Below are positions 4,968-63,980 of a stretch of DNA of 64,000 nt, one piece after another. Every line of letters begins with the position of its first letter. Within the stretch, counting starts at the first letter, position 1. Where the stretch lies: the IMG/VR virus record IMGVR_UViG_3300037222_000066, one strand, 5' to 3'. The DNA comes from a virus. The notes under the pieces were generated by a model. The model searched no databases. It was given only the letters and a program-made list of their open reading frames with translations, and had not been told where the DNA came from. The translations under genes and the position numbers were made by a program.

Positions 4968-5975
4968 TTAAAAGAGGCGGTCTTTCCACGTCCGGGGGGT
5001 CTTGTCCGAGATAATCTCTAAGTCCAAGTGATACTTGAATGGTCGATACCCGCGCACGTCAATTGCTTCCACCATGTTCAAAAGACCCTTGGTTAAGGAA
5101 GTCTTGGTTTCATAGCCCAGGAGCCGGCGGGCCTTATACGACGAACAGTGCGCGTATTTAACTTCTTGCGGGCGACCTGGCATGTAGACAGGAACCAACT
5201 TGAACCGGACTAGATTTGCAATCGTCTGGGCCAACTCGTTGATTGTCACCACACCCTCGTCGGGCCCAATATTGATCACCTCGCCAACCACGTTTTCCTG
5301 GAACGCCATTGCCTTGAGACAGAACAAGCAATCGTCAATGTAGGAGAAGCATCGCTCTTGGGTGCCATCGCCATAGATTACAGGCTGCCGCCCCTGCATC
5401 ATGAGGTTCATCATAATCGAGGCTACGTTGCGGTACGGGTCATCATACTTTTGGCGGGGCCCAATTATGTTGTGGGGTACCGCAATGACATACTCAACGC
5501 CGTGCGTTTCGCACAGGTTTCTTAAAAACTGCTCTACGGCCAGCTTTCCGATCCCGTACGGGTCTTGCGGCCTGCACCGCATGCTCTCGATAAACGGCGG
5601 CATTTGGGTTCCCCCGTAACGCGCCATAGACGAACAGATCACTATACGCTTCACAGAATTCGATATGGCGGCGGAAATTACGGATACACTCGCCCCGACT
5701 ATATTCTGTGTCACAACATGCGGTGAGAACACGCTCAAGCCTTCGTACGCTGTCGCCGCGCAATGATACACTATGTCGCATCCTCGTATCCTTTCCTTCA
5801 CGTCGGAGAAGTCGTTGCAGTCGATCTGGTGAAACTCTACACCAGCCGGGACATTATCCAACTCACCGCCGATCATGTTGTCGATCCCGACAACCTCGTG
5901 TCCGTCAGCCAGCATTACGTCTGCGAGGTGGCTGCCTAAAAACCCAGCCACCCCAGTGATGAATATCCTACTCAC
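4968..5975 (-). CDS. NAD(P)-dependent sugar epimerase/dehydratase (extended SDR, 335 aa)
   Basis: N-terminal Rossmann motif TGVAGFLGSHL (GxxGxxG); catalytic YxxxK as YGIGK; length typical of UDP/dTDP/GDP-sugar epimerases and 4,6-dehydratases. Confidence 0.8.
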   Translation of the reverse strand: MSRIFITGVAGFLGSHLADVMLADGHEVVGIDNMIGGELDNVPAGVEFHQIDCNDFSDVKERIRGCDIVYHCAATAYEGLSVFSPHVVTQNIVGASVSVISAAISNSVKRIVICSSMARYGGTQMPPFIESMRCRPQDPYGIGKLAVEQFLRNLCETHGVEYVIAVPHNIIGPRQKYDDPYRNVASIMMNLMMQGRQPVIYGDGTQERCFSYIDDCLFCLKAMAFQENVVGEVINIGPDEGVVTINELAQTIANLVRFKLVPVYMPGRPQEVKYAHCSSYKARRLLGYETKTSLTKGLLNMVEAIDVRGYRPFKYHLDLEIISDKTPRTWKDRLF

Positions 5976-6579
5976 GATGGATCACGATCAAGAATTCGGG
6001 CATCGTACCGTGGCACTTGTCACACTCGTCCCAGCAATGAGCCTTGCCCAGGCCATTCGGGCACGCGATGGCTTCCCACCGATAGCCCGGCGGCATGGGG
6101 ACGTGATCCATCACGCTCTCGGGCTGACAGTCCAGCGTCACGTCTTCAATGATGTAGACCCCACCAGTCTTGAGAAACGGCAGGAGGGTCTTTGCAGACG
6201 TGATCTGATGCTCCAGTTCGTGCGAGCCGTCGTCAATGATAACGTCGAACAGCGGGTTCTCCCACTTCTCCAGGGACTGGCGCAACTGGGCCGGATTGTT
6301 CTGGTCGCATCCCAGACTATGAATGCGACCCGCGTTAACCAGGCAGGAATAGTTGCTGTCCAACCCGTACACGTCAGCGTTCGGAAAGAACTCCTCCCAC
6401 ATTCGCAGGCTGGAGCCGTAGTTAATTCCAATCTCCAGCAGGCGCAAAATGCTCTCCTGCTTATCCTTGAACAGGTCCCAGTACGCCACCGTGTATGTGT
6501 GGCAGGTGTCGCCGGCGAGATAATGATCGCCGCCTTTATCCGTAGCGTGTTTCTTAGCTAGCTCGCACAGTGGGGTCAT
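5968..6579 (-). CDS. class I SAM-dependent methyltransferase, sugar O-methyltransferase-like (203 aa)
   Basis: HATDKGGDHY N-terminal motif; LEIGINYGSS and DVIIDDGSH SAM-binding motifs. Confidence 0.65.
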   Translation of the reverse strand: MTPLCELAKKHATDKGGDHYLAGDTCHTYTVAYWDLFKDKQESILRLLEIGINYGSSLRMWEEFFPNADVYGLDSNYSCLVNAGRIHSLGCDQNNPAQLRQSLEKWENPLFDVIIDDGSHELEHQITSAKTLLPFLKTGGVYIIEDVTLDCQPESVMDHVPMPPGYRWEAIACPNGLGKAHCWDECDKCHGTMPEFLIVIHRE

Positions 6580-7280
6580 GGGACAAATCCTGTGAATTGA
6601 GTGGCATCGTGGTTGGCGGCATATTGCCTAAACGGGAGACCAGAGTTCAACTCTGTATAGGCCCAGATTGGCAAGTCAATAGGAACCGTGCTGGTACGTT
6701 GAATAAATCTCCTGCACTCCCAATTGTATGAACGATCAATGGCCGGCAGGTATCTTGACGGCCATATGTGGGTCGATCCAACAAACCGCCAGTTTGCACC
6801 GGTGTCGGATGGCACACCTTTCTCCCAGATACCGGGGAACGGAATGTAGTTCATTCTCTCCATGGCTTCGATGCGGCTTATGAATGTGGCAATGATCTCC
6901 TCGGTCACCGGCTTACCAGTCCACGCGCCCTGCTTGAGCACGCCGTAGTCGAGCCACACCCATACGTCTACCCGCGGGTCCGCAGCGGCGGCTATCATGG
7001 CCCACGCGGTGCGCTGGTGTTGCACAATGTTGGACAAGACCATATGCCGCGGCGTGGCGTACCTGTCAGACGGTACCTCCGTTGCCGGCGGCAAGTCAGG
7101 CATAACATGCTCTTTCATGTACCTATACAGCCAGCAATCCTCTAGCGGATAATCGTAGAACACCTTGATCTTGTCCCCGAGCGCCGAAACAAGACCATTC
7201 CCGAGCGCCGTGTATTGCTGGCGCGTCAGGTGCTTCACTTCGAGCGGCACGTAGGCCGTGACGGCTTTGACGATCATCAT
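6576..7280 (-). CDS. tandem paralog B of unknown function, possible group/glycosyl transferase (234 aa)
   Basis: Clear paralogy to 7277-7981 (DCWLY, IVQHQ(R/K)TAW, W(V/I)DYG(V/I)L and C-terminal R(Q/W)Y.A(N/D)H motifs); same length. Confidence 0.5.
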   Translation of the reverse strand: MMIVKAVTAYVPLEVKHLTRQQYTALGNGLVSALGDKIKVFYDYPLEDCWLYRYMKEHVMPDLPPATEVPSDRYATPRHMVLSNIVQHQRTAWAMIAAAADPRVDVWVWLDYGVLKQGAWTGKPVTEEIIATFISRIEAMERMNYIPFPGIWEKGVPSDTGANWRFVGSTHIWPSRYLPAIDRSYNWECRRFIQRTSTVPIDLPIWAYTELNSGLPFRQYAANHDATQFTGFVP

Positions 7281-7981
7281 GCCCTCGCGTAGTTGGTGAA
7301 CATCGTTTCATTGTGGTCCGCCTGGTACCAGCGGATCGGCAGGCTGCCATACTTCTCCACGCGCGCCAGGTCGTTCACTTCCCAGGTCACGTTTCGCTTG
7401 AGGTTGATGTTCCGCATAGTGCGGTCCATGAACTCGTTGGAGAACCGGCGCAGGTACTTGCGGGGCACGACCATCAAGCCCCCGCAGAACCGCCAGGACG
7501 GATTGCTGTCGTCGGACGGCCGATCAGGACCCCAGCATCCCGGGATGGCAAAATCGTCGTCTTTCACCTGCCCGAGGAAGTTGTTGATCACGTCCACGGT
7601 CACGCCCGGTACGTGCAGGATGCCGTAGTCAATCCACACGAAGGTTGTGGCGCTCGGGTCTACGAGGGACGCCGCGCCCAGCCACGCCGTCTTCTGGTGC
7701 TGAACGATATGGTAGGCAAGTGTGTTCTTGGCCGGGTTGTCCCCCATAGAGTGCGTCAAATGAAAAGCGCCGGCCTTCTGCAAGTCCTTGTACAGCCAAC
7801 AGTCTTCAACCGTGTTGTAGAACGCCTTGAACGGCGCGCGGATAGCGCGCAGCCCCTTACCCAACTCACTGTACTCGGACATTGGGCGGGGATGCCCTTC
7901 GATGGGTACAAAGCCGGTGACGACGCGAATTCTAGTCATGCCAGATAAACTCCGATAGCTCGTTGGCGTCCACGGTCGCAA
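7277..7981 (-). CDS. tandem paralog A of unknown function, possible group/glycosyl transferase (234 aa)
   Basis: Paralog of 6576-7280; 4-nt overlaps with both neighbours. Confidence 0.5.
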   Translation of the reverse strand: MRPWTPTSYRSLSGMTRIRVVTGFVPIEGHPRPMSEYSELGKGLRAIRAPFKAFYNTVEDCWLYKDLQKAGAFHLTHSMGDNPAKNTLAYHIVQHQKTAWLGAASLVDPSATTFVWIDYGILHVPGVTVDVINNFLGQVKDDDFAIPGCWGPDRPSDDSNPSWRFCGGLMVVPRKYLRRFSNEFMDRTMRNINLKRNVTWEVNDLARVEKYGSLPIRWYQADHNETMFTNYARA

Positions 7982-9935
7982 TCCAGGCTTCCTTGTCCTC
8001 GCGGCCGTACGAAATCATGATGCTCTGACCGTTCGGGTGCCACGCGAGCCCGGCCACAAACTCGATCACTTTATCGTGAAAGTAGAACGGCTTGGTGATC
8101 CGCTGAACTGTCTTTGACTTGTCGTACCACACGAACCGGTGCTGATAGTAGCGCTTGCCGTTGTGTGGATGCACGCGGGCCTCATGCACGACTGACAGGA
8201 AGCCGCACTTAAATGGGATCACCTGTGAACTTCCACTGATCGCGTCAGCCGCAATGTTGATGGGCGTGCGCGATTTTTCAACACCGTTAGGGCGCACAGT
8301 GACACCCAGACGATAAGCAAACTCTAAATCATTGCCGTCAACCCACGGCATCCAGTTCTTCTCGTGCTGGCGGTGCGCCGGCAGCATGGCCCGAGCATCG
8401 GTGAGTGTGGCGCAGGTAACAAACGTTCCGGGGGCATTTGTTTTGCCAACGTCAATCCTGGCCAACCATTGCTCACACCAGCCCTCGTGGTTCTGTTCCC
8501 GCACACAAGCGTTAATCCACCAGCTGTTATTCCAGCTGAACAACCGCATGTCTTCAAACCCGGTTACCAGATCATATGCCGGCTTCGGCAAATGGGCCTT
8601 AACCTCTGCGTGTTGATTGACCTCAAAGTTATCTTTCAATGATACCAAAAAATTACGGGTGTTGATCGGGTTGGTTGAGTTCGCTTCGCCGTTTGTGCTT
8701 TTGATCAGGTACCGCCCTTGCTCGTCCATCGTGTAGTTGACAGTTCGCACCAGCACACAAATTTGTCCATTAGCCACCGCTATAGACGGGTTCATCGCGG
8801 TGTATCCATCCGGCGGGGTGAACGCAATCCGGCGGGTGGAGAATGACGACATTCTCTCAGACAGGGGCCGGATATAATGAAACAGATTGCCGCGCGCTTG
8901 CTCTCGGGAGAAATCGCTGGCGTCCTTAGACAGTGCAACATAGTTGCACATATCAAACCCACGCTCGCGGCGAGCCTTATCGTAGTACGCTACGATAGCG
9001 AACTCTTCGCGCAGCCCAATGGTGTAGACATAGTCATTCACAAACAACAGATCGCCGGGACGCTTGATGCGTAACCCCTCTTCGGCAACTAGGAGCGCGG
9101 CATAATTCATACCTTTAGTTCTGTAGTAGTTAGCTAGTGCATAGAGGGTTTCCGCACGACTGGGACGAAAATTGTATGCCCCCAACATTTCGGCCACAAA
9201 GCCACTATCATTTCCACTCTCGCGGAGCGTATTAGCGAGGTTAAAGCTAGCATTCCAGATTTCCTCGTCCCATCCCCCGAGTTCAATCCTTTTGCGATAA
9301 GCCTTCGCAGCCTTCTCCGGTTGGCCCGCATCCTTATAAGACTGAGCAAGATAGAACCACGATCTACCATTGTTTGGGTCCGTCTTTATTGCTTCCTTCA
9401 ACAGTCGAATATCTCGTACGGACTTATTCTTGCGATTAGAGCCATCTGCATGATCTTGAAAGTAAATTCCATGCACCTCGCCAGCCGTGGTCACGTCAAG
9501 ATATTCGTGCGTCACACCTACATAGTTTCCAGTGGCAGCACGGCTGACGAAGCGCGCATTGTGGTAGGACAGCGTGCCACCCTTCTGCACGACGTTATAG
9601 GCCATGCCGCTGCCTAGTTGTTTTTTGAAATTTTTGTCCTCGACAACCAGCTCCATATCCGCGTCACACAGGAGCAGATAGTCCCAAGAAAGCGGCGATT
9701 TTCGCGCGAGAGCGAGAGCGGCATTCCGGGCCTGCTCAAAGTTAACGAATGGAGCGTGCGTGATCTCGCCGGGAATTGATGCCGCGGCGAAGAACCCTTC
9801 AATCTTTTGTATGGTGTCATCGGTGCTTCCTGTGTCAACAATGGCATAGCTATCAATATGGGGGGCCACACTCTTGAGCATTCGCTCAATTCGGTCAGCT
9901 TCGTTCTTAACAATACAATTGAGCATTAATTTCAC
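7932..9935 (-). CDS. family 2 glycosyltransferase fused to TPR repeats and a C-terminal beta-rich domain (667 aa)
   Basis: N-terminal CIVKNEADRIERMLKSV...YAIVDTGSTDDT is a typical GT2 signature; central AQSYKDAGQPEKAAKAYRKRIELG TPR-like repeats; C-terminal ~300 aa of unknown fold. Confidence 0.65.
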   Translation of the reverse strand: MKLMLNCIVKNEADRIERMLKSVAPHIDSYAIVDTGSTDDTIQKIEGFFAAASIPGEITHAPFVNFEQARNAALALARKSPLSWDYLLLCDADMELVVEDKNFKKQLGSGMAYNVVQKGGTLSYHNARFVSRAATGNYVGVTHEYLDVTTAGEVHGIYFQDHADGSNRKNKSVRDIRLLKEAIKTDPNNGRSWFYLAQSYKDAGQPEKAAKAYRKRIELGGWDEEIWNASFNLANTLRESGNDSGFVAEMLGAYNFRPSRAETLYALANYYRTKGMNYAALLVAEEGLRIKRPGDLLFVNDYVYTIGLREEFAIVAYYDKARRERGFDMCNYVALSKDASDFSREQARGNLFHYIRPLSERMSSFSTRRIAFTPPDGYTAMNPSIAVANGQICVLVRTVNYTMDEQGRYLIKSTNGEANSTNPINTRNFLVSLKDNFEVNQHAEVKAHLPKPAYDLVTGFEDMRLFSWNNSWWINACVREQNHEGWCEQWLARIDVGKTNAPGTFVTCATLTDARAMLPAHRQHEKNWMPWVDGNDLEFAYRLGVTVRPNGVEKSRTPINIAADAISGSSQVIPFKCGFLSVVHEARVHPHNGKRYYQHRFVWYDKSKTVQRITKPFYFHDKVIEFVAGLAWHPNGQSIMISYGREDKEAWIATVDANELSEFIWHD

Positions 9936-10380: not shown

Positions 10381-11073
10381 TTATCCGTTGGAAATTCGGA
10401 GCGGGCCAGTCATGCCGGCATAACCGAAGCCAGTAGCGCCGGTCGTGCCCGTTGGTCCAGGATCATGAACGCGATATACCGCACCGAGAATATGCGGGTC
10501 CACCTTGAGCACAACGAACTTTGTAAACGTGGCCGGATTTTTGTTGTAGCCCGCGGGACCGGTGACGCCGGTGATGCCCGTGGAGCCTGTGGCCGAAGTC
10601 GGACCAGTCTTACCAAACGGCCCAATGCCCGTCGCGCCGGTGATGCCAGTAGGGCCGGTAAAGCCAGTTGGTGAAAGACCGGGCAATCCGACAAATGGAC
10701 CTGTCGTGCCAGTCGGACCAGTCGCGCCGGTATGGGTGGTACCTGATGGACCTGTAGGAGAGGTACCAGAAACACCAGTGCTTGCATTAATAGTGAGACC
10801 GGGACCCTGTGGGCCTGTACAACCCGTCGGACCAGTTTGACCCTGTGAAGGGCCATGAGCGCCGGCACCAATTATCCCAGTTGGACCTGTCGAGCTACCC
10901 GCGGCCGCTGCCGTAGGACCCTTCAAACCGGTTGCGCCGGCCGGGCCATAAACGTTGGCATTGTTGATCAGCTCAACGACTTCCTCCAGCACCGCTGGAA
11001 TTTCGTTGTCATCATACGACTGCGGCGGCTTAGGTGCCGGGGTCAGCGGATTTACATACTTGGCCATGCTCAA
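10381..11073 (-). CDS. collagen-like (Gly-X-Y repeat) protein (230 aa)
   Basis: Long GPTG/GATG triplet repeats across most of the protein, with non-repeat N- and C-termini. Confidence 0.6.
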
Positions 11074-11076
11074 CCT

Positions 11077-11646
11077 TTACCCGTTCGAGATAGTCAGTAC
11101 GCCACTGTTGTTCCACACCTGGTTGACCACATACGGGTCCGCGAGCGGCGGGATGAACAATGTCACCGTGGTCCCGGTCGGACCAGTGTTACCGGTCGCA
11201 CCCGTGGCACCAGTTACACCTTGACCAGTTGCACCGGTAGGCCCTGTCGTGGTGCCCGTGGTGCCCGTGGGGCCAGAGCTACCGGCGGGGCCGGTAGCGC
11301 CAGTCGTGCCAGTCGGACCAGTCGGGCCACCAGCCTGACCAGTGGCACCGGCGGGGCCAGCCGGACCAGCCGGGTTTGCACCCGTCGGACCCGTCGGACC
11401 AGTGTTACCAGTCGCACCCTGCGCGCCGGCCGGACCTTGCGGGCCGCCAAACGAACCGGTTGGACCAGTGACGCCGGTAGGGCCTGTCGGGCCCGTAAAA
11501 CCTGTTGCTGAACCAGTTGGGCCAGTCGGACCGGTCAAACCGGTTGGGCCACCAATGTTACCGGCATTAACTGCGGCAACGACCTGGGCGAGAATATTGC
11601 CAATCTGGTTTCGATCCGGATTGGTGACCGCGGGAATAGTTGACAT
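11077..11646 (-). CDS. collagen-like (Gly-X-Y repeat) protein (189 aa)
   Basis: [13 protein letters not shown]... repeats; globular C-terminal ~40 aa. Confidence 0.6.
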
Positions 11647-11706: not shown

Positions 11707-12516
11707 TTAATTCTCTAGGATAACTTTCGACCGGCCATTTGGCTTAAACCAGAAGGGAGGAGCAAACCGGGCAAATAGTTCGGGCGGCAAGGAAGTTTCC
11801 CGAGGGATTTTACGAACTCGCTTGCCTACTGCGTGGAGACCAGGAGTACCAAGTCTAGCGTCGAACTCAGACGCCCCGGGTATCGGCTGCACGTTGTCGA
11901 AGTCATGTTTTAGCGCGGGGAGGGATAACCATTCGTAAATAGCGCTAATAACACGCGCGGGATTAGCAGCGAGCCCATCATAATCCACCAACATTAAACG
12001 GTCCGCATAGGGCCCGTAGTATGCCTCTTTCAATGAATTCAGTGGATACCCGATCATCCCGTTAGAAGCCGCCAACATATCAGCACGATCAAATACGTTC
12101 ATATTGGCGTCAAATTTGAACAACCCGCTCACTTGTAACGGATATTTACGTAACAGTTTTTCAACGCTGTCCATAATCCACGCCGGCTGCCGCACACAAC
12201 AGATCAAGCGGCAATCTGGAAACAACTGGACTAGTAATGGCAATTTTCCGGTCCAGGCGCGATTGCTGTCTATCGCAGTAATTCTTGGGTCTTCCGGGTA
12301 GTACGCAGAAAATAAACCGGTAATCATGTTCGCGCGGTCCGCATCGGTTACAAACACGGACGTTTCCTGGTTAGCCGCGGTCGCACGTTGCACGGCATTG
12401 ACAATCCCATATATGGGCGAAATTATTGACGTTTGCAAAAACGGGTTCTGCTGGAGGATCGCAGCGAGTAGCGTGCTGCCGCTACGCGGGAGCCCGCTTA
12501 AAAAGTGAGCATTCAT
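11707..12516 (-). CDS. PAPS-dependent sulfotransferase-like protein (269 aa)
   Basis: N-terminal GLPRSGSTLL motif matches the 5-prime-PSB loop of Sulfotransfer_3/Stf0-type sulfotransferases. Confidence 0.6.
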   Translation of the reverse strand: MNAHFLSGLPRSGSTLLAAILQQNPFLQTSIISPIYGIVNAVQRATAANQETSVFVTDADRANMITGLFSAYYPEDPRITAIDSNRAWTGKLPLLVQLFPDCRLICCVRQPAWIMDSVEKLLRKYPLQVSGLFKFDANMNVFDRADMLAASNGMIGYPLNSLKEAYYGPYADRLMLVDYDGLAANPARVISAIYEWLSLPALKHDFDNVQPIPGASEFDARLGTPGLHAVGKRVRKIPRETSLPPELFARFAPPFWFKPNGRSKVILEN

Positions 12517-19065: not shown

Positions 19066-19431
19066 TTAGTGAATTTTATCGTCTTCCCAAGGGCACTGGA
19101 CCACTAATTCCATGTGTTTTTTCAACATGTCCCGGTGTTTTGCCGCCAGGTCTGTCAACTCTTTTATTGCACTTTCCAGCTTCTCGGGCACCTGGGCGCC
19201 AATTTTAATCAGGTTCTGGATCGAGATCAGGGTCTGGAGCCGGCCGGCCGCGGAGTGCAGCGCGAACGCCGTAGACATGCCATCGACAAACGGCTGCCGC
19301 TCCAGGTGCCGATCATAGCTGTCAACGGTGGCCAGGATGGCCTGGGCTTGCAGCTGCCCTATAGTCGTGATGTTTACCGGCGCCTGGAGAGCGTCGATGA
19401 TCATCATTTCATTTAACAGCGGTGTGGGCAT
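19066..19431 (-). CDS. hypothetical protein (121 aa)
   Basis: Co-oriented ORF in the leftward early block. Confidence 0.45.
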   Translation of the reverse strand: MPTPLLNEMMIIDALQAPVNITTIGQLQAQAILATVDSYDRHLERQPFVDGMSTAFALHSAAGRLQTLISIQNLIKIGAQVPEKLESAIKELTDLAAKHRDMLKKHMELVVQCPWEDDKIH

Positions 19432-20032
19432 TGGTTATATCCATTGGCATTTTTTTCAACTCGTCCGGGTGTTTCTCGCCGGAAATATACAGCGTCAACA
19501 GGTTCAACATATGCTGGCGCTGGGCCGGCTCCATGTAGTACCCGCGGGCCCACAGAGTGTGGATGGTCAGGTTAAATGGCTTGAGGCGCTTACGCAAGTG
19601 GCAGATAACCACGTCGACCATCTTGGGGTCGGTCTCTTCCTTGAGCGAAGATCGCCGGCTCTCGATCACCTGGTGCATCGTGTCCTTGGTGACCTCGGTT
19701 CGATTGATCAACACAGCCAGGAGGGCACCTTGCAACTTTGTCACCTTGAACAGGCGCACGCAGGAGAATACCAGCTCCTGCTCCTGCACGTAATTGTCCT
19801 TCACCCAGAGCGGGGTCCGCGTGTCGCGGTGGGCGCCGGGCGGCCAGTCTTCCTTTGGGTAGTAGGCGATGGACCCGGTGAGCACCGCGGTGCGAACCGC
19901 ATCCCGCACGGCGTCGGCCGTCTGCCTCATAGCCCGGGCAATCGCCCGATATGGCACGCCTTCGTCCGCGAGCCGCACGCAGTATGGCACGAGAACTTTT
20001 GGAATTTCTTCGGATGGCAACAGGTCAGTCAT
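19409..20032 (-). CDS. putative transcriptional regulator with OmpR/PhoB-type winged-helix C-terminus (207 aa)
   Basis: C-terminal DVVICHLRKRLKPFNLTIHTLWARGYYM matches the wHTH recognition helix/wing pattern (V..HI..LR.KL.....I.TVRG.GY). Confidence 0.5.
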   Translation of the reverse strand: MTDLLPSEEIPKVLVPYCVRLADEGVPYRAIARAMRQTADAVRDAVRTAVLTGSIAYYPKEDWPPGAHRDTRTPLWVKDNYVQEQELVFSCVRLFKVTKLQGALLAVLINRTEVTKDTMHQVIESRRSSLKEETDPKMVDVVICHLRKRLKPFNLTIHTLWARGYYMEPAQRQHMLNLLTLYISGEKHPDELKKMPMDITNAHTAVK

Positions 20033-22475: not shown

Positions 22476-22670
22476 TTACTTGTGGGTGAGGTTCAGCGCC
22501 AATTGGCAGATGCCGCCGGGGGTCTGAACACCAGTGAACCCATGCGTGGAACTGACCAGTTTAGTCTTGCCCGATGTAGAGGCAAGCGCTTCATCGTATG
22601 CCGCCTTTGAAACGTCGATGGTGACGGTCATTACATCGCCCTTGATATCAATTTGAAGGGGTTTCGCCAT
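22476..22670 (-). CDS. hypothetical early protein (64 aa)
   Basis: GGAGA RBS 6 nt upstream of the ATG; first gene of the leftward early operon. Confidence 0.5.
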   Translation of the reverse strand: MAKPLQIDIKGDVMTVTIDVSKAAYDEALASTSGKTKLVSSTHGFTGVQTPGGICQLALNLTHK

Positions 22671-22779
22671 TTTATTCTCCTATGTGGCCGGAAAGCGCCG
22701 GCCGTCGCACCCATGCCGCATCGGGCAACGCCCCAGCCATCGCGCGATGGTAAGGTGTGAAGGTGTTACCCTGATACCG

Positions 22780-22980
22780 TCGAGCGATTATACCTCCGTG
22801 TAACCCCTTGATATCATTGAACTCCCCACCGGAAGATTAACTCATTGATTTCATTGGTATATTGGTAATCAGGTTGTACCGTTAATATTGTATATTTATA
22901 CGATAATATTAATTGGCCTCTAATAATTTAACACCTTGATACCATTAAGGAAAAGTCCTTAGTATGTTAATATCACGAAA
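22780..22980. promoter_or_regulatory. AT-rich divergent promoter zone
   Basis: GC content drops sharply; three TTGAT(A/T) -35-like boxes on the plus strand (about 22809, 22846, 22935); a perfect TATAAT on the minus strand at 22787-22792 facing the leftward early genes. Confidence 0.35.
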
Positions 22981-23005
22981 ATCGGAAAAGACACAGCCGT
23001 TTGAA

Positions 23006-23050
23006 CCCACCATTTTCCCCACCATTTTCCCCACCATTTTCCCCACCATG
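23006..23050 (+). repeat. iteron array, 3.5 x 12-bp unit ACCATTTTCCCC (direct)
   Basis: Read directly in the sequence: cccaccattttccccaccattttccccaccattttccccaccatg. Confidence 0.9.
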
Positions 23051-23136
23051 TTGCTCTAGGAGGCATCAAGTTGGAAGGAGAACAAAACATGATCAAATAT
23101 TATATATTCAATAATACCAGTCATTACATGATTACA
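23051..23136. promoter_or_regulatory. AT-rich core between inverted iteron arrays (candidate DNA-unwinding element/origin core)
   Basis: aacaaaacatgatcaaatattatatattcaataataccagtcattacatgattacaat flanked by the inverted arrays. Confidence 0.4.
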
Positions 23137-23183
23137 ATAATGGTGGGGAAAATGGTGGGGAAAATGGTGGGGAAAATGGTGGG
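23137..23183 (-). repeat. iteron array, 4 x 12-bp unit in inverted orientation (AAAATGGTGGGG)
   Basis: aatggtggggaaaatggtggggaaaatggtggggaaaatggtggg. Confidence 0.9.
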
Positions 23184-23346
23184 TTTTAGTAGCCCCATCG
23201 TTTGAAAAGGCAAATACTTACATATTAAGCTTTATTACCTACTGAAGGTTGCACGGTGTGACGGTATATATCTTAAAAGGACATATTTGGTTGTGCTCTT
23301 AATATGTAAGTATTACACCATTCCACCCTCAAACCCCGTCCAAAAT

Positions 23347-23368
23347 CCACCATTTTCCCCACCATTTT
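23347..23368 (+). repeat. third iteron site (2 units, direct)
   Basis: ccaccattttccccaccatttt; a half-site-like caccattccaccc lies at about 23306. Confidence 0.8.
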
Positions 23369-23498
23369 GACCCCTAATCTGTTTCATAAGGTAGGATAAA
23401 CCAGGATATCGAGCCATTCCCAGGCAGGAGCGCGCCCGACGCGGCAGGGGCGAGGCCGAAAAACGGCGGCGCGCCGCGTATGGCCACAGGAGACGACC

Positions 23499-23675
23499 AT
23501 GAAATCCCTTTTGAAGTCCCTTCTACTGAGCTTCGGTCAGTGGTTAGCTGAAATCAGCAATTCCCACGCAGGAACAGTGGGTTGCGCTGCTTTCCACGCT
23601 CATTGCGTCATCTTGGAGCACTATCGGGAATATCCTTATAATTTCCCACGCTCCAATGACTACGAAAGCCATTGA
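23499..23675 (+). CDS. possible small ORF (58 aa)
   Basis: AGGAGA RBS 5 nt upstream of the ATG; overlaps the TTCCCACGC motif cluster, so it may be non-coding. Confidence 0.2.
   Translation: MKSLLKSLLLSFGQWLAEISNSHAGTVGCAAFHAHCVILEHYREYPYNFPRSNDYESH
23561..23651 (+). promoter_or_regulatory. three copies of a TT(T)CCCACGC motif upstream of the rightward early operon
   Basis: At 23561-23569, 23591-23599 and 23642-23651; the motif is related to the iteron core TTTTCCCCACC. Confidence 0.45.
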
Positions 23676-37290: not shown

Positions 37291-37329
37291 CAGGAGTTTG
37301 CCCAACGCGGCATGGGCGCTAGGAGAAAA

Positions 37330-37587
37330 ATGAAAAACAATACCCTCGAAATTCCCGAGTTCCTTAAAATTAGCGCCGAGGAACGTAAGGCGGCTTGGAA
37401 AGATCGACCTTACACAGACCCCTTCGCCGGGGGCCTGACCGATGAACGACGGGCGCTCGAAAAAACGCGCGTCGCGGAAATCGCGGAAGGCCGCAAGTTA
37501 AAGAACGCGCGCGGGTTGGCCAAGATAAAGCAGGCTCACCCAGGAGAACGCTGGGACCGTAAGCACAAGATATGGGTGCCAGCATGA
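37330..37587 (+). CDS. hypothetical protein (85 aa)
   Basis: AGGAGA RBS 4 nt upstream of ATG 37330. Confidence 0.4.
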   Translation: MKNNTLEIPEFLKISAEERKAAWKDRPYTDPFAGGLTDERRALEKTRVAEIAEGRKLKNARGLAKIKQAHPGERWDRKHKIWVPA

Positions 37588-38072
37588 CCCCAGAACAACG
37601 GCAAAAGTGGCTAGCTGGTAGAACCACGCACGGCGCCTACGCAAATGGTAAGGAAACATCTACGCACGCGATATGGCGCGGTATGGTTGCCCGTTGTTGT
37701 AATAAAAACGCAAAAGACTATCCCCGGTACGGCGGATTAGGCGTACAGGTGTGCGCTAGGTGGCGGGCGTTTGATTTGTTCTTAGCAGATATGGGGGAAC
37801 GTCCGGAAGGATTAGAGTTAGATAGATACCCAGATACTTGGGGAGACTATGAACCTGGCAACTGTCGATGGGCTACTCATAGCGAACAGCAACGAAACAA
37901 ACGAAGCACTCGTTTACATGCGTGGGAAGAAGAAAACGTGTGCTTAGAGGAATGGTCTAGGCGAGCAGGTATAAGCAAGCAGTTAGCTTTCTATCGGCTA
38001 AAACAAATGGAAGTACGTCATGACAACCCCCGAAGCAAAAGTGAAGGCCAAGCTCAACAAGCGGTTGGCTAA
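37572..38072 (+). CDS. HNH homing endonuclease (HNH_3/AP2-like; 166 aa, probable start 37584)
   Basis: GLELDRYPDTWGDYEPGNCRWATHSEQQRN motif; paralog of 33055-33501. Confidence 0.65.
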   Translation: MGASMTPEQRQKWLAGRTTHGAYANGKETSTHAIWRGMVARCCNKNAKDYPRYGGLGVQVCARWRAFDLFLADMGERPEGLELDRYPDTWGDYEPGNCRWATHSEQQRNKRSTRLHAWEEENVCLEEWSRRAGISKQLAFYRLKQMEVRHDNPRSKSEGQAQQAVG

Positions 38073-41358: not shown

Positions 41359-44337
41359 ATGCTATCTGACCAAACTCGCGAGTTTATGAGCAGAGTAGTT
41401 CCGTGGCCGGGTGCAACAGCACCCGGCTACGTCGATCTTGTATGGGCGCCGGCATTTAGCGGGAAACCATTCAAGTCGTTGGACGAGTTCATGAAGATGG
41501 CCGACTGGGCCAACCGCAAGGAAACGATCAAGGATTTATACTATTGCCTCAGCCTACAGGCAGAAGCTGCCAAAAATCACCGTGGAGGTCTGGTCGCCAA
41601 GCGCCACGCGTCGCTGGCGTTGTCACTCAAGTCCATCTGGCTGGACATTGACGTTAAAGACCCCCCAAAGGGGTATAAGGATTTAGCCGAAGCACTAGAC
41701 GCCCTCCAGGCGTTTCGCATTGCCGCCGATCTACCACCCCCGTCGGCAATAGTGCATTCGGGCGGGGGTCTACATGTCTACTGGATTTCAGACCGTGCTC
41801 TGTCCAAGGCCGAGTGGGAGCCTTATGCTCAAGGGCTCAAGGCACTGGCGGTCAAGCATGAACTGCGTTGTGACGCTGGATTGACCACGGATGCTGCTCG
41901 CATCTTGCGTGTCCCGGATACGTTCAACTACAAGACTACACCGCCTCGGCCCGTGAGGCTGCTGGGGCTGCGGGAACAGTCACTCGACTACGACTTTGCC
42001 CGCAGCCTCGGTTTCCTGGCAGTGATATCGCCCATGGCGACAACCGTTGCCAACAAGACGTTTTTCATTAACGCTGACCAGCCATCGACACCTTCGCCGT
42101 TGCTGGCTGCGCTACCGAAAGATAGCCTGGCCGCTGGTCTGACGACTTACAGCGATCAGTCATTGGACTTTGATAATATTGTCAACGGCTGCGCGTTCAT
42201 ACGGGACGCGTTGAAGACCGAGGGCAAGGACTATGACCAGCCAATGTGGAACTTGACCACGTTAGCGGCAACATTCATGGAGCACGGACATGCGTTGGCC
42301 CACAGAATGGGTAAAGGACACAGCGGATATACTGTTGAGAGCACTGACAAGCTCTGGGATCGAAAAAGTAAAGAACGTAAGGATAAGGGTCTTGGGTACC
42401 CCTCTTGTGCTGCAATTCAAGCTGCCGGCTGCAAGGCGTGCGCGATTTGTCCGAATTTTGCAAAAGGTAAGTCGCCACTCAATCTCGGCGCTCCAGTTGT
42501 TGCCACGGCGGTAGAGGGCACCGTTACATTAATTAAGGCTCCAGACGATTTGAAATTACCGCCAGGGTACGTCCTCAATCCGGACGGCTATATCTGTGCG
42601 GTGGTACCGTCTAAAAAGCCTGGGGCACCAGACCATTATCTCCAGTTGTTTTACAACAAGTTCTTTAAACCTTGGGTTCAAGCTGGGCCCAAAGCACTGA
42701 ACTTTATCACGACCGCTGATAAAGGTATTACCAGGAAAGTCAGCATACAGCTGGAACTGCTAGCTAGCAGTACCGTCATGTGGATAAGTCTGTACAAGCA
42801 GGACGTTATCCCGGTCCACAGATATAAGGCTTTAGCGGAGGGTTTCATGCACGCTTGGATAGCACAAATACAAGACGCCGAAACAGCGCTAATATCACGC
42901 CCGTTTGGGTGGCTCTATACGAAAGACGACGAGAGCACCGAACGGCACGGCTTCGTATATGGTGGAGTTATCTACCATGACGACAACACTACGTCCCCGG
43001 CCGGCGTAGGTGATCTGGAATTGCGCGAGTACTATACTCCGACCGGTTCTATTGCTCCCTGGTTGAAGGCGGCTAAGGTGATCACCGATATGAAGCGTCC
43101 GGAGCTGGACGCCGTTATTGCGTCGTCGTTCGCGGCCCCGCTGCTGGTTGTGCCGGCAAAATATGGATGCGTGTTGAGCGTTTTCGGTGAGAGCGGCGGC
43201 GGTAAGTCCACTGCTGCCAAGGTGGCCGCGGCTGTCTGGGGTAACCCGAAGCTGACCAAGGAAGTTGGGTCTACCACGACCAACTCTATGGTGGAGAAAC
43301 TGGGAGAGGTTAACAACTTGCCGGTATACCGGGATGAAATACGCGAAGACGAGGATCAAAAGAAAGCCTACGACAACTTGTTCATGGCATCGGAAGGTGT
43401 GAACAAGGGACGCTTGAATGCTAACTCGACACAAAAGAAACGGGCACATTGGCAGACACTGATTATCTTTTGCTCTAACACCAGTTTTGTTGACTATCTG
43501 TCAAAAAGGCAGACCCAGACCGACGCCGGTATATATCGGGTGTACGAGTATGAGTTTATCAAGAGCCCTGCTGGGGCACCGGGCGTCTTGTCCAGTACAT
43601 CAGACGTGGACCGTATCATGCAGGTGCTGGAGTATAATTATGGGATGGTCGGCGCTGAATATGCCAAGATGCTGGGGTCCAATCCGGCTGAAATTGACCG
43701 CATAACAAAGAAAATGTGCGACGACTTTGAGGCCGAAACCAAGTCCGAGCAGCCGGAACGGTACTGGCCAGCTACGTGTGGTATTCTGTTGGCGGGGGCT
43801 ACCTTTGCCAATCAGTTGGGTGCCGAAATTGACATACCGGCGCTCCGTGCGTTCCTGTTGAAGACCTACTTTGTCAACCGCGAACGTTGCAAGCAGGCTA
43901 ACACAAAGGGCGGTTCACAAATGAACACCGAAGAAACACTAACTGGGTTCCTCAAGGCTCATATTGGCGAGAGCTTGTGGACAGATACATTCAACCAAGG
44001 GCGGGGTAAGCCAGCCGCCTTGCAAGTTCTGCATGGACCCCGCGTTGACATACCCAAGCCTATCAACGTTCACTGGGCGATCAACGACCGGCGCTTGCTA
44101 ATCTCGCGCAAGGCGTTCTATGATTACCTGGCGGTATCGAAGACCCCCGGTGCGACGTTAAAACGTGGATTGAAAGATCATTATGATATGGCGGAAGTGT
44201 TTATTAAGATGGCCGCCGGCACGCGCTATGTGCAGACACAGGAATTTGTTATGATTATTCCTGTTCCAGAAGGTTCTCCACTGGAAGACGTGATGAACAT
44301 TTACAAACAAATAGTAAAAGAGGAAACTAAACTCTAA
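41359..44337 (+). CDS. primase-polymerase (prim-pol) fused to a D5-like SF3 helicase (992 aa)
   Basis: Prim-pol signature IWLDIDVKD...VHSGGGLHVYW; Walker A GESGGGKSTA in the C-terminal half. Confidence 0.7.
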   Translation: MLSDQTREFMSRVVPWPGATAPGYVDLVWAPAFSGKPFKSLDEFMKMADWANRKETIKDLYYCLSLQAEAAKNHRGGLVAKRHASLALSLKSIWLDIDVKDPPKGYKDLAEALDALQAFRIAADLPPPSAIVHSGGGLHVYWISDRALSKAEWEPYAQGLKALAVKHELRCDAGLTTDAARILRVPDTFNYKTTPPRPVRLLGLREQSLDYDFARSLGFLAVISPMATTVANKTFFINADQPSTPSPLLAALPKDSLAAGLTTYSDQSLDFDNIVNGCAFIRDALKTEGKDYDQPMWNLTTLAATFMEHGHALAHRMGKGHSGYTVESTDKLWDRKSKERKDKGLGYPSCAAIQAAGCKACAICPNFAKGKSPLNLGAPVVATAVEGTVTLIKAPDDLKLPPGYVLNPDGYICAVVPSKKPGAPDHYLQLFYNKFFKPWVQAGPKALNFITTADKGITRKVSIQLELLASSTVMWISLYKQDVIPVHRYKALAEGFMHAWIAQIQDAETALISRPFGWLYTKDDESTERHGFVYGGVIYHDDNTTSPAGVGDLELREYYTPTGSIAPWLKAAKVITDMKRPELDAVIASSFAAPLLVVPAKYGCVLSVFGESGGGKSTAAKVAAAVWGNPKLTKEVGSTTTNSMVEKLGEVNNLPVYRDEIREDEDQKKAYDNLFMASEGVNKGRLNANSTQKKRAHWQTLIIFCSNTSFVDYLSKRQTQTDAGIYRVYEYEFIKSPAGAPGVLSSTSDVDRIMQVLEYNYGMVGAEYAKMLGSNPAEIDRITKKMCDDFEAETKSEQPERYWPATCGILLAGATFANQLGAEIDIPALRAFLLKTYFVNRERCKQANTKGGSQMNTEETLTGFLKAHIGESLWTDTFNQGRGKPAALQVLHGPRVDIPKPINVHWAINDRRLLISRKAFYDYLAVSKTPGATLKRGLKDHYDMAEVFIKMAAGTRYVQTQEFVMIIPVPEGSPLEDVMNIYKQIVKEETKL

Positions 44338-53484: not shown

Positions 53485-55494
53485 TTACCCCATAGCCTGC
53501 GGCTGTGGCTGTTGCCCGCCTTGAGCCGGTGCAGTCACTCGCATCTTGCGAGACTGTGCGATTAGCTTCTGGAAGAACTCTTGACCCTTCCACGCAGCAA
53601 CGTCTTTCGGGATCACGAACTCACCGACATTCACGTTGACGCCAGGGCGCCGCCCGTTCAAGCTGGCTTGTACGTCATCGGTGCGGGCGCCGCCGCTCGG
53701 GCTCGCACTTGCTGGCACCCTGCCACCACCAGCCATTTGGAAACCGCCGCGCCCCATTGGCCGCTGCATTTGCTGGCGTTGCGACGGATCGGGAATTGCT
53801 CCACCGCGGGCATATCCGCCACCACCATATCCGCCACCGCCATAACCACTGCTAGTTTGTGAACCGGGCGAATAACCGGGCGTGTAGCCGCTGCCATAAG
53901 CGCCGCCGGAGTTGCCGCCTCCTTGTCCACCAGCGCCAGGGCTATATTGTCCACTAACGCCAGGGCTATAGCCACCAGCCGCCGGGGCACCATAGCCGCC
54001 GCTCGCGCCGTAACCACCAGCCGGGGCGCCATAGCCGCCGCTCGCGCCGTAACCACCAGCCGGGGCGCCATAGCCGCCGCTCGCGCCGTAACCACCAGTT
54101 CCTGGACTTCCTGCCGGTGGACCATATCCCCCGCTAAAATTCTGATTATTACCGAAACCGCTCTGGTCTGGCACGCCCGGTAATGGACCATTGGAAGCAT
54201 CCGGTGGAGTGAACCCTGTTTGCGTTGCTGCGCCGGGTATGTCTCCGCCAGTAGGAATGCCCTGTATTGGAGAATTTTGCTGGTCAAACCCACCAGGAAT
54301 GAACCCGGTATTGTTTATACCTGGGTCCATAGACGGAGCGTTAGGATCACTTCCTGCAAACGGATTGGTCGAAGAACCCTGAACGCCTTGGGAACCGCTT
54401 AGGTCCGCGCTCGGCCCTAATAGATTTGGGTCAACACCCCCATTTATAACATCAGTAGGACCACCTACGCCGCCGCTGGTCTGCATTAAATTGGGATCAA
54501 CCGGGCCCATCGCCGGGGCAATTGGATTTCCATTTTCATCATATTGCTGCGTGCCCTCAGCCGGGCCCGCGGGTTTGCTAGTCGGATTACCAGTGAAAGG
54601 CTGATTGAGCATTGGCGCTCCCGGAACAGGGCGAGCAACGGGATCATAAGCCTGACTGTTAGCGCCTTGGTCGGCTGAACCCTTGCCAAAGTTCCCGAAT
54701 GGGTCATTACCGCCGCCTTTACTGCCGCCACCACCACCGCCAGCTACAGTGGAAGATTGTGTGTTCTGACCAGTTGGCGTGAATTTCGGAGCAGAAGCGG
54801 CTGTATTGAGCGCTGCGATAGCCGGAGTGGTTAGATTGACGCCAGTGTTCGCCGCGCCCAGAGCTGAATTCTCAGCACCTGTCAGGCTCTGTACTTCCGA
54901 GTTCAGGGCGTTGACCGCCTGCCCGGGCAGCTGCTGTCCGACCGCAATGGCCTGCGAGCGTAACTGGCGCCCCGTGGCTGCGGTGGCTAATCTGGACTGT
55001 TGTTCAGATCCGGCAACGGCGGCGGCCTTGCCGGCTTCTTGAGCCTGTTCGAGTGCCGCATATCGCCCAGAAGAAGGATCAATACCATAACCTTCCAGGT
55101 TTTTCTCGGCAGCTAAGCGACCCTGGTCCATAGCCTGAGCGGTGCCGCTCCCGGCCGTCGCTGCTTCACTATCGGCGCGTTCCTTACTGTTAAAACTATT
55201 GGCGTCTTGGATCAGCTGGTCTTGCTGAGGGACATATTTCGACAAGTAGTCGCTGACGCTGGCATTGGCCAGGATACCTGACGTAGCTGCGCTTGACAGA
55301 TACTGTGCAATATTGCTGCTGGTAACCGAGTTCACACCAGCAAAGACGTTGGTGCCCCACTGTAACAACTGGCCGGAAAGAGCCTGTGCAATACCAGAAA
55401 TCTGGTTTAAAATGTCCTGGGTTGCCAGATTGTTCGGTGACGTAACCGGGGTAGAAGTTGAAAATGAACTAGACATAGATGCCCCCAGAGACAA
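53485..55494 (-). CDS. large Gly-rich virion protein with GGYGA(S/P) tandem repeats (669 aa)
   Basis: GGYGASGGYGAPAGGYGASGGYGAPAGG repeats (DNA about 53950-54110). Confidence 0.5.
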   Translation of the reverse strand: MSLGASMSSSFSTSTPVTSPNNLATQDILNQISGIAQALSGQLLQWGTNVFAGVNSVTSSNIAQYLSSAATSGILANASVSDYLSKYVPQQDQLIQDANSFNSKERADSEAATAGSGTAQAMDQGRLAAEKNLEGYGIDPSSGRYAALEQAQEAGKAAAVAGSEQQSRLATAATGRQLRSQAIAVGQQLPGQAVNALNSEVQSLTGAENSALGAANTGVNLTTPAIAALNTAASAPKFTPTGQNTQSSTVAGGGGGGSKGGGNDPFGNFGKGSADQGANSQAYDPVARPVPGAPMLNQPFTGNPTSKPAGPAEGTQQYDENGNPIAPAMGPVDPNLMQTSGGVGGPTDVINGGVDPNLLGPSADLSGSQGVQGSSTNPFAGSDPNAPSMDPGINNTGFIPGGFDQQNSPIQGIPTGGDIPGAATQTGFTPPDASNGPLPGVPDQSGFGNNQNFSGGYGPPAGSPGTGGYGASGGYGAPAGGYGASGGYGAPAGGYGASGGYGAPAAGGYSPGVSGQYSPGAGGQGGGNSGGAYGSGYTPGYSPGSQTSSGYGGGGYGGGGYARGGAIPDPSQRQQMQRPMGRGGFQMAGGGRVPASASPSGGARTDDVQASLNGRRPGVNVNVGEFVIPKDVAAWKGQEFFQKLIAQSRKMRVTAPAQGGQQPQPQAMG

Positions 55495-62496: not shown

Positions 62497-63980
62497 GTCA
62501 CGCCGTTCCCAGAAATCAACCAGCCGGTGGAATTCAGCTTGACCGCAGACGCGATGCCGTAGCGCGCTAGAGCCCGGGTTCCTGTTGCACCTGACGTAGA
62601 CAGGTTCATCTGATCCGTTGTGATTGCAATCTGTCCACCGGTGTTTCCCATGTTAACAAATGTCAACACTGTTCCATTTACATACGGCACGCTACCGTTT
62701 GCTGGGATCGTAAACGTACAACCTGTCGCACCAGTTGGGTTCACAACCGCGCAGCCGGCATCGCCGGCTACCAGGGTATAAGTGCCAGTTTGGCTATTGA
62801 TTGGAATTTGGCCAGCACCAGTAGGCCCGGTAATTCCCGTTGGACCGGTGTTGCCGGTCGGACCAGCGCCACTGACCCCGGTTGGCCCAGTGATAGTGCT
62901 AGCCGCGCCGGTATTGCCGGTTGGGCCAGTCACGCCGCTGATCCCAGTCGGGCCAGTAACTGTACTCACCGCACCGGTTGGCCCAGTGTTGCCAGTCGGG
63001 CCAGCGCCACTGACCCCGGTTGGCCCAGTAACTGTGCTTGCCGCACCGACCGCGCCGGTATTGCCGGTCGGGCCAGTCACGACGCTCGCCGCGCCTACCG
63101 CGCCAGTATTGCCGGTCGGGCCAGTCACGACGCTCGCCGCGCCTACCGCGCCAGTATTGCCGGTTGGGCCAGTCACGACGCTCGCAGCGCCTACCGCGCC
63201 AGTATTGCCGGTATTGCCAGTTGGGCCAGTAACTGTGCTCGCCGCGCCTACCGCGCCAGTATTGCCGGTATTGCCAGTTGGGCCAGTAACTGTGCTCGCC
63301 GCGCCTACCGCGCCGGTATTGCCGGTTGGGCCAGTCACGCCGCTGATCCCAGTCGGGCCAGTAACTGTACTCACCGCACCGGTTGGCCCAGTGTTGCCAG
63401 TCGGGCCAGCGCCACTGACCCCGGTCGGGCCAGTCACGACGCTCGCCGCGCCTACCGCGCCAGTATTGCCGGTCGGGCCAGTCACGACGCTCGCCGCGCC
63501 TACCGCGCCAGTATTGCCGGTTGGGCCAGTCACGACGCTCGCAGCGCCTACCGCGCCAGTATTGCCGGTATTGCCAGTTGGGCCAGTAACTGTGCTCGCC
63601 GCGCCTACCGCGCCAGTATTGCCGGTATTGCCAGTTGGGCCAGTAACTGTGCTCGCCGCGCCTACCGCGCCGGTATTGCCGGTTGGGCCAGTCACGCCGC
63701 TGATCCCAGTCGGGCCAGTAACTGTACTCACCGCACCGGTTGGCCCAGTGTTGCCGGTCGGACCAGCGCCACTGACCCCGGTTGGCCCAGTGATAGTGCT
63801 AGCCGCGCCGGTATTGCCGGTTGGGCCAGTCACGCCGCTGATCCCAGTCGGGCCAGTAACTGTACTCACCGCACCGGTTGGCCCAGTGTTGCCAGTCGGG
63901 CCAGCGCCACTGACCCCGGTTGGCCCAGTAACTGTGCTTGCCGCACCGACCGCGCCGGTATTGCCGGTCGGGCCAGTCAC
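62493..63980 (-). CDS. collagen-like repeat tail fibre protein, 5-prime-partial (N-terminus beyond the window end)
   Basis: More than 450 aa of [13 protein letters not shown](T/V)VT repeats; non-repeat C-terminal 60 aa. Confidence 0.6.
62821..63980 (-). repeat. nested tandem repeats in the fibre gene: about 48-bp (16-aa) units inside a roughly 900-bp segmental duplication
   Basis: The segment at about 62869-63060 recurs nearly identically at about 63769-63960. Confidence 0.7.

Follow-up and report, generated by a model that had tools for sequence, protein, structure and literature searches.

Inverted repeat arrays around a conserved AT-rich core as a candidate replication origin of an uncultivated podophage

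Introduction

The IMG/VR virus record IMGVR_UViG_3300037222_000066 belongs to an uncultivated podophage, and the stretch of 64,000 nucleotides analyzed here (the window) has the gene content of a lytic podovirus. The structural genes recognized in it encode an SU10-type portal and adaptor, a capsid protein, TerL, and T7-like internal virion proteins; further genes encode a lysozyme, a split family-A DNA polymerase, an SNF2 helicase, a PD-(D/E)XK nuclease, and endonuclease VII. Leftward small genes on one side and a rightward replication module on the other are separated by a gap of 830 bp (22670-23499), and this gap contains the subject of the present report, namely arrays of a 12-bp repeat placed on both sides of an AT-rich core (Table 1). 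An earlier reading of the DNA letters without database searches (the sequence-only reading) had put the arrays between divergent early operons, which the gene layout confirms, and had regarded them as a replication origin or a partition site. The following sections describe the arrays, their counterparts in related phages, and the phage helicase that might act on them, and then weigh what the element may do; the chance that it is a replication origin is put at about one half.

Architecture of the repeat arrays

The coordinates of the repeats were obtained by direct reading of the sequence, with a repeat finder, and with Tandem Repeats Finder, and all three were concordant. The inverted arrays of a 12-bp unit and the two further units to their right, as they had been described from the sequence alone, were both recovered in this way.

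Table 1. Features of the control region and proteins discussed in the text (window coordinates)
Feature	Position	Strand	Remarks
Left array	23006-23049	+	3.7 head-to-tail copies of CCCACCATTTTC, 100% matches
AT-rich core	23076-23131	+	25% GC; opens with GAGAACAAAACATGATCAA (23078-23096) and runs into TTCAATAATACCAGTCATTACAT; proposed unwinding region
Candidate leftward sigma-70-like promoter in core	23097-23124	-	ATGACT (23124-23119), 16-nt spacer, TAATAT (23102-23097)
Right array	23139-23183	-	3.8 reverse-complement copies of the CCCACCATTTTC 12-mer, 100% matches; abuts the core
Third array	23316-23368	+	2 perfect head-to-tail copies at 23347-23368; degenerate copies (CACCATT, CCACCCT) to their left at 23316-23331
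Directional family-wide motif GGTTGTAC	22872-22879	+	about 206 bp left of the core
GGTTGTGC, motif of the GGTTGTAC type	23289-23296	+	identical orientation; about 210 bp right of the core
Second motif class AAGGTG-N2-AMGGTG, AAGGTGTGAAGGTG	22752-22765	+	left edge of the control region
Second motif class AAGGTG-N2-AMGGTG, AAGGTTGCACGGTG	23245-23258	+	right of the right array
AAGGTG-N2-AMGGTG, all forward copies	22752, 23245, 24795, 25711, 26459, 27575, 31722, 38827	+	
AAGGTG-N2-AMGGTG, reverse copy	22220	-	
OmpR-like winged-helix protein (Trans_reg_C)	19409-20032	-	candidate binder of a conserved element, not of the arrays
Fused primase/DUF927 helicase with C-terminal winged-helix domain	41359-44337	+	992 aa; proposed trans-acting initiator

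Together, the left and right arrays make up a perfect inverted repeat of 46 nt (23004-23049 / 23140-23185), the arms of which are 90 nt apart. When up to two mismatches are allowed, the CCCACCATTTTC 12-mer occurs 16 times in the window against an expectation of 5.7, a number that was reached in 0 of 100 shuffles, whereas its copies without mismatches all fall within the array region. The same is true of nine of the 11 window copies of the CCACCATT octamer. Furthermore, a k-mer cluster scan identified the arrays as the sole non-coding cluster of short repeats in the window, and assigned the remaining clusters to collagen-like coding repeats. The array cluster is therefore a real and non-random cis element and, as described below, one that is conserved in the phage family.

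The spacer between the left and right arrays had been described as an 86-bp stretch of about 25% GC. This value holds for its AT-rich part, the 56-bp core, but the spacer as a whole measures 89-90 nt and has 31% GC. The 60-mer that begins at 23081 has 20% GC, which is the minimum of the window and is shared with the 60-mer that begins at 22882 in the same intergenic region.

Conservation among related phages

Neither the region nor the 20 kb of the replication module matched any of 50,697 GenBank phage records at the nucleotide level, and the nearest cultured relatives are Rhizobium phages, whose primase is 33% identical. The comparison therefore draws on uncultivated relatives, here labeled with L numbers. 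The close set that covers the region consists of L001, L125, L128, L129, L148, and the window itself. The wider family includes L132, L134, and L135, which were reached through the neighboring 547-aa protein (41-51% identity), as well as L137 and L148, which were reached by a scan with a 19-mer of the core and whose TerL is 72% and 91% identical to that of the window, respectively. Two other searches were less productive, as a loose DNA pattern of three repeats returned mostly unrelated coding repeats from IMG/VR, and the two flanking small proteins, used as queries for related loci, returned only a contig that was already known.

Most of the intergenic DNA of the close relatives has diverged, and conserved islands remain in it. 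The AT-rich core AGAGAACAAAACATAAACA is conserved among ten related phage sequences, all of which keep the form AGAGAACAAA(N)CATAAACA with an AT-rich stretch after it; the divergent gap that holds it and its orientation are likewise the same in all of them. These ten sequences include phages whose 547-aa neighboring protein is as little as 41% identical to that of the window and whose TerL is as little as 72% identical. At the start of the core, the window (GAGAACAAAACATGATCAA) reads GAAC-N7-GATC where the relatives have GAAC-N7-AAAC and L135 has a perfect GAAC-N7-GAAC, while the adjoining 23-mer TTCAATAATACCAGTCATTACAT is invariant across five sequences of close relatives. This 23-mer had no match in a scan of 185,579 reference genomes, so the scan yielded neither a prophage copy nor a clue to the host.

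The arrays keep a fixed position relative to the core, with GGTGG at +63, +75, +87, and +99 and the third array between +264 and +297. In L001, L128, and L129 the right array, which abuts the core, has four copies at a spacing of 12 bp; L148 has three, and the array of L125 is degenerate. The third array, of which the window has two good copies, comprises four copies in the relatives, at a spacing of 10-12 bp as opposed to the 12-bp period of the left and right arrays. The repeat variant is homogenized within each genome, as exemplified by L128, in which all four right copies read ATGGTGGGGAAT. This homogeneity extends across the core, since TTTTCC units occur on both sides in the window and units with a TTTTTT spacer on both sides in L148, which indicates that the arrays evolve together.

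Inverted repeats flank the core throughout the wider family as well, but their sequences differ from one lineage to the next. L132 has nested pairs of inverted repeats of 38 nt and 26 nt around the core, L135 has a 30-nt inverted pair along with ACCTTGGCACCTTGCC / GGCAAGGTAACAAGGT, and L134 has AAGTATCCAAG motifs in both orientations; enrichment of CCACC/GGTGG is confined to the clade of the window itself. Thus, the design common to the family is a fixed core with mirrored flanks that are specific to the lineage.

These comparisons bear on two further explanations of the element. The first is that the 46-nt inverted repeat forms a hairpin or a cruciform, serving as an RNA processing site, a terminator, or a structured RNA, or else that a miniature mobile element has it as its terminal inverted repeat. 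The DNA between 23000 and 23190 of the window indeed folds at -62.8 kcal/mol (z = -12), and Rfam returned sub-threshold matches to generic models of long-hairpin microRNA precursors. However, no Rfam family reached its gathering score, and the equivalent region of L125, in which the left array is degenerate, folds no better than its shuffles (z = -0.35), so that a structured RNA or a cruciform was rejected for lack of conservation. A miniature element was rejected on the grounds that conservation is highest, in all relatives, in the interior of the supposed element, which marks it as resident DNA and not as an insertion. Explanations of this sort are hence considered highly improbable.

The second explanation is that the arrays mark a genome terminus or a concatemer junction, with a role in DNA processing or packaging. 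In T7, arrays of short repeats lie beside the terminal repeat, and the phage has a podovirus-like structural module, in which the portal and adaptor are of the SU10 type and the internal virion proteins are T7-like. Moreover, the metagenomic contigs of several relatives end in or near the array region. On closer inspection, the breaks cluster at about 23540-23600, in a poorly conserved small open reading frame (ORF) and not at the repeats, and strain variation accounts for them equally well; other assemblies (the window, L001, L134, and L135) pass through the region. In addition, the arrays are inverted around a conserved core instead of being co-oriented, and the ends of the window, which lie in collagen-like repeats, share no terminal repeat. 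A terminus at this position is accordingly very unlikely.

As for the contig ends themselves, six of seven short contigs of relatives (L120-L124 and L126) start within about 70 bp or less of one another, at window positions of about 23537-23606. These positions fall in a 58-aa ORF of low conservation just to the right of the arrays. The contig of L128 ends within the third array, and an independent assembly of the phage (the P0027 contig) ends 1.7 kb before the array region. The boundary near 23537-23606 suggests hypervariability at the strain level, a physical end being less likely.

The phage-encoded primase-helicase

The gene that the sequence-only reading had called a primase does encode one, fused to a helicase. 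The protein has a primase-like N-terminal region followed by a DUF927 helicase (Pfam, 8e-20), and DUF927 is the helicase family of the Rep/Cch type (PMC5862659), which is found in staphylococcal islands (SaPIs) and in SCCmec. In a phmmer search of the PDB, the best matches were Cch of SCCmec (5dgk, 3e-7) and Rep of SaPIbov1 (8tch, 3e-6). The predicted model of residues 560-992 (pLDDT 82) aligns over the full length to both proteins, with Foldseek values of 2e-13 for 5dgk and 2e-9 for 8tch over about 440 columns, although in sequence it is only 10-17% identical to Rep and Cch. The C-terminal winged-helix domain, in residues 859-992, likewise has SaPIbov1 Rep and Cch as its best matches, by sequence as well as by predicted fold.

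Among 17 homologs, conservation of the primase-helicase is lowest in the winged-helix segment, with a mean identity of 29% compared to 40-55% elsewhere. Such variability fits a domain that would recognize DNA in a lineage-specific manner. The helicase gene ends at 44337 and a convergent gene follows directly; the k-mer cluster scan detected no repeat cluster near it.

A candidate replication origin

A SaPI origin consists of 6-12 short iterons, half of them on each side of an AT-rich center, with at least two per side and in opposite orientation on the two sides (PMC9371898, PMC7581432). Rep binds these iterons by means of its C-terminal winged-helix domain, and two hexamers, one per side, have been proposed to assemble there; in SaPI5, the protein is a fused Pri-Rep (PMC9371898, PMC7581432). 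The window resembles this system in both components. On the protein side, it encodes a DUF927 / MCM-like helicase that carries a C-terminal winged helix, as SaPI Rep and the SCCmec proteins Cch/Cch2 do, and that is fused to a primase as in SaPI5. On the DNA side, repeats with opposite directions stand on the two sides of an AT-rich center, with two or more of them per side in the window (3.7 and 3.8), in L148 (three and three), in L001, and in L128.

Given the kinship of the phage helicase with SaPIbov1 Rep and Cch and the SaPI-like layout of the repeats, an origin of this self-loading DUF927 kind was chosen as the best explanation of the arrays and the core, and we regard it as having about an even chance (0.5) of being correct. 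By analogy, the arrays may work like a SaPI-type origin, which is the closest system in terms of function and not a class of which they are proven members. We infer, on this basis, that the helicase pairs with the CCACCATT repeats and that replication starts at the arrays.

The proposed mechanism is as follows. The winged-helix C-termini of the primase-helicase would bind the CCACCATT repeats, and two helicase rings would assemble in opposite orientation, one per side of the core, as expected if the opposite directions of the left and right arrays dictate loading. The AT-rich core would then melt between the rings, and priming of the exposed strands would fall to the fused primase domain. The copies at 23347-23368 and the other conserved motifs might be auxiliary or regulatory sites, and transcription from the leftward promoter-like site within the core could further activate the origin.

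The likeness to SaPI origins has limits of several kinds. The phage is of a lytic type with about 64 kb of DNA and not a staphylococcal island. Its repeats are 12-bp head-to-tail units with a conserved part of 8 bp, in place of isolated 5-6-mers, and it has in addition a 19-bp core conserved in the family and a third array. Unlike SaPI origins, which lie directly downstream of rep (PMC7581432), the arrays at 23.0-23.4 kb are about 18 kb upstream of the helicase gene.

This distance is also the first of several points that weigh against an origin. The left array is reduced to 1-3 copies in the close relatives, and L125 and L129 retain a single good copy, short of the two opposed repeats per side of SaPI origins. 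Thus, the symmetry that the sequence-only reading had described is perfect in the window genome and specific to it among close relatives, but its conservation is not strict, and as a partner of the right array the third array is better kept than the left one. Rhizobium phage RHph_TM27A, a distant relative, has a divergent region without comparable arrays. The cumulative GC skew has its minimum at about 24-25 kb, near the arrays; as this coincides with the switch in the direction of transcription, it is unusable as evidence for an origin. Finally, the arrays occupy a divergent early control region with promoter-like sites, one of them within the core, and the right array starts 15 bp upstream of the -35 hexamer of this candidate promoter, which is a typical position for an activator. 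A transcriptional role is consequently possible, as discussed in the next section.

The other half of the original proposal, a partition site, fared worse. It would make the arrays a centromere-like site of a plasmid-prophage, bound by an adaptor of the ParR or ParB type. Arrays of short repeats flank a promoter in parC of R1 and in the omega sites of pSM19035, which the region resembles. However, a Pfam scan of 62 ORFs returned no match to ParA, ParM, ParB, ribbon-helix-helix, integrase, or repressor families, although a small adaptor of unrecognized type could escape such a scan, and the phage has the gene complement of a lytic podovirus. Partition is therefore scarcely credible, whereas an origin has in its favor the helicase family, the layout, the uniqueness of the arrays, and the conserved core.

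Classical iteron origins were considered too. Like lambda ori, P1 oriR, RK2 oriV, and pSC101, the region has tandem identical repeats that evolve in concert and stand beside an AT-rich stretch suited to unwinding. In lambdoid phages and theta plasmids, the iterons are co-oriented and lie on one side of the unwinding element, Rep_3 or O-type initiators are encoded next to or around the origin, and DnaA boxes are usually present, whereas the arrays of the window are inverted. The 62 ORFs contained no match to the Rep_3/O-type initiator families. The DnaA box TTATCCACA, with up to one mismatch, occurs six times in the window and not at all within 22670-23499; some copies of the third array in relatives read TTATCCACC, which by eye agrees with eight of nine positions of the box. 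Given the missing initiator, the missing DnaA box, and the inverted arrays, this is not an iteron origin of the lambda or plasmid type.

A last comparison concerns the origins of SV40 large T and papillomavirus E1, where short inverted repeats on either side of a central element, together with an AT-rich tract, would load two opposed hexamers. It is an analogy of mechanism only, because these helicases belong to the SF3 class, have an N-terminal origin-binding domain, and come from eukaryotic viruses; the same analogy has been drawn for SaPI Rep (PMC7581432).

If the arrays are an origin, they would provide a clean and testable cis site for a DUF927-type helicase in a lytic phage, and in a phage family otherwise uncharacterized they would mark where replication starts and where the early genes are controlled. 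Self-loading helicases of the DUF927 / Cch type are widespread in mobile elements, but in the literature cited here the only origins defined for them come from staphylococcal islands (those of SaPIs and a putative one of SCCmec). Natural variants are at hand, as about ten related genomes share the core and differ in repeat units and copy numbers, and they could reveal how the winged helix selects its iterons and what positions the two rings on either side of an unwinding region.

Possible transcriptional control of the early operons

The most serious competitor would make the arrays operator or activator sites of a phage transcription factor that controls divergent early promoters, with no direct role in replication; activation upstream of a -35 hexamer, a roadblock, or looping between arrays are the modes that could apply. 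This explanation is possible, although we consider it less probable than not by a clear measure, and the arrays would in that case be an ordinary finding. Several observations agree with it, beginning with the location between leftward and rightward early operons and the activator-like spacing mentioned above. A promoter scan flagged ATGACT-16-TATAAT, with 10 of 12 matches, at the homologous place in the core of L001 and L125, while the site of the window itself has eight of 12 matches and was not flagged. A rightward promoter-like site of the extended -10 type abuts the third array in L125 and L001. The outer inverted repeat of L132 carries TGCTATATT on both sides, on the strand that reads away from the core; by eye, the pair resembles divergent extended -10 promoters, which the promoter scan did not flag. 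The family also retains an OmpR-like winged-helix protein.

On the other hand, the constraint on the core is not what a promoter alone would predict, since the spacer and the -35 region are invariant whereas the -10 hexamer varies. Scans for sigma-70-type promoters gave no consistent set across the family. The period of the left and right arrays is 12 bp and not 10-11, the array motif is found nowhere else in the genome, and the small early ORFs include no other recognized DNA-binding protein besides the OmpR-like one, which is itself a poor candidate for the reasons given below. It is also possible that the two roles are compatible, with an origin that is activated by the promoter in its core.

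The OmpR-like protein had been named as a wHTH regulator and as a potential binder of the arrays. The first part stands as a winged-helix gene call, albeit a marginal one, as the Trans_reg_C score is 25.1 bits against a Pfam cut-off of 26.2; homologs in L132 and L135 receive the same label. The second part was not borne out. The recognition helix VDVVICHLRKRL is nearly invariant (its variants are ..N..KK. and ..V..KK.), and the form VDVVIC(H/N/V)LRK(R/K)L is kept in the window, L148, L134, L135, and L137, all of which have different flanking repeats. The binding-site sequence thus does not track the recognition helix across lineages, so the protein is unlikely to read the arrays, and its target should be a conserved motif.

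Proteins of the OmpR-like class bind tandem direct repeats, and the arrays do recall the tandem sites of OmpR, PhoB, and CtrA, in that their repeats follow one another head to tail and combine a conserved part with an AT-rich spacer. They differ from these sites in their 12-bp period and in changing where the recognition helix stays constant. The core is closer, as CtrA sites (TTAA-N7-TTAA) have an 11-bp geometry and the core of the window family reads GAAC-N7-AAAC, with GAAC-N7-GAAC in L135. The comparison with OmpR and CtrA therefore fits the core better than the arrays, and judging from the sequences, a conserved element such as the core would be the better match for the OmpR-like protein.

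The observations on the two proteins can be combined in a more elaborate scheme, which is speculative and rather unlikely to hold in full. It assumes a two-key module of origin and switch, common to this family of uncultivated podophages, in which separate readers for the core and the arrays would couple early transcription to the firing of the origin. The GAAC-N7-AAAC core and its AT-rich tract would be read by the OmpR-like protein or by a host factor, and the lineage-specific arrays by the fast-evolving winged-helix domain of the Cch/SaPI-Rep-type primase-helicase. If true, a DUF927 helicase would for the first time have a defined origin outside the staphylococcal islands, and the element would illustrate how origin specificity diversifies around a fixed core.

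Other motifs of the control region

Besides the features above, an ORF at 23071-23205, which spans the right array and encodes MVGK repeats, was considered and discarded as a gene, because its ATG is ATA in all relatives.

The second motif class, AAGGTG-N2-AMGGTG, occurs nine times in the window against 0.57 expected, and each copy is co-oriented with local transcription; related copies are present in L135, L133, and L001. As the majority of the copies fall within ORFs, the enrichment may be due to codon bias. The copy at 31722 is in an intergenic gap and, together with an inverted copy about 26 nt downstream, forms a strong hairpin.

To the left of the arrays are 18-mers resembling TAACCCCTTGATATCATT, of which there are four copies (22801-22818, 22838-22855, 22929-22946, and, within coding sequence, 22635-22652). 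One of these 18-mers, TTGATAYCATTA, is kept in relatives, and L134 and L135 have a related motif, CTAAGTATCAA, in both orientations. To the right of the right array, the window has a perfect 17-nt inverted repeat, AATACTTACATATTAAG, at 23213-23229 / 23298-23314, with 68 nt between its arms. It is specific to the window; close relatives have in its place a conserved palindrome, ATCACATTGTGTCAAATGTGTGAT, which overlaps a promoter-like site of the extended -10 type.

The directional GC-rich motif GCCCGAYGCGGCAKGGG is found at 22710-22726 (-), 23434-23450 (+), and 37300-37316 (+) of the window and at 101-120 and 350-369 of L125. It is followed by a GC hairpin, a ribosome-binding site, and a start codon, and its orientation is always that of the downstream gene. 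The motif is conserved in relatives, with related versions in L134 and L135, and the hairpin shows compensatory changes among them (GGCCG..CGGC versus CCCCGA..TCGGGG). Its possible roles, on both sides of the control region, are those of a phage-specific promoter, a leader, or a nut-like antitermination site.

Three further IMG/VR contigs (L138, L145, and L147) contain the 19-mer of the core within a chain of GAAC tetramers that has an exact period of 11 bp. There the 19-mer adjoins two perfect palindromes of TGTTTCACGTGAAACA, the canonical ParB parS sequence. None of 32 window proteins matched these contigs by tblastn. This occurrence suggests that tandem GAAC-N7 sites are a wider motif of phages or of their hosts.

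Other features of the genome

ARAGORN reported a tRNA-like gene at 30520-30596 (+), with an undetermined two-base anticodon ('ct'). Two ORFs with an extra ORF between them encode the family-A DNA polymerase, and an HNH endonuclease gene lies downstream (32099-33058, 33055-33501, 33456-34457, and 37572-38072); the split may be a fragmentation related to an intein or a homing endonuclease. Genes for sugar modification are embedded in the structural module (4968-9935 and 11707-12516, minus strand), and the set includes an NAD-dependent epimerase/dehydratase, a methyltransferase, a glycosyltransferase-TPR protein, and a sulfotransferase.

Long coding repeats of the collagen-like type (Gly-X-Y) are present at 10559-11400, 53811-54098, and 62903-63976. 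At the right end of the window, a unit of 357 bp occurs twice, with 98% identity, in collagen-like sequence. As the window both begins and ends in such sequence, the collagen-like repeats probably explain the positions at which the assembly breaks.

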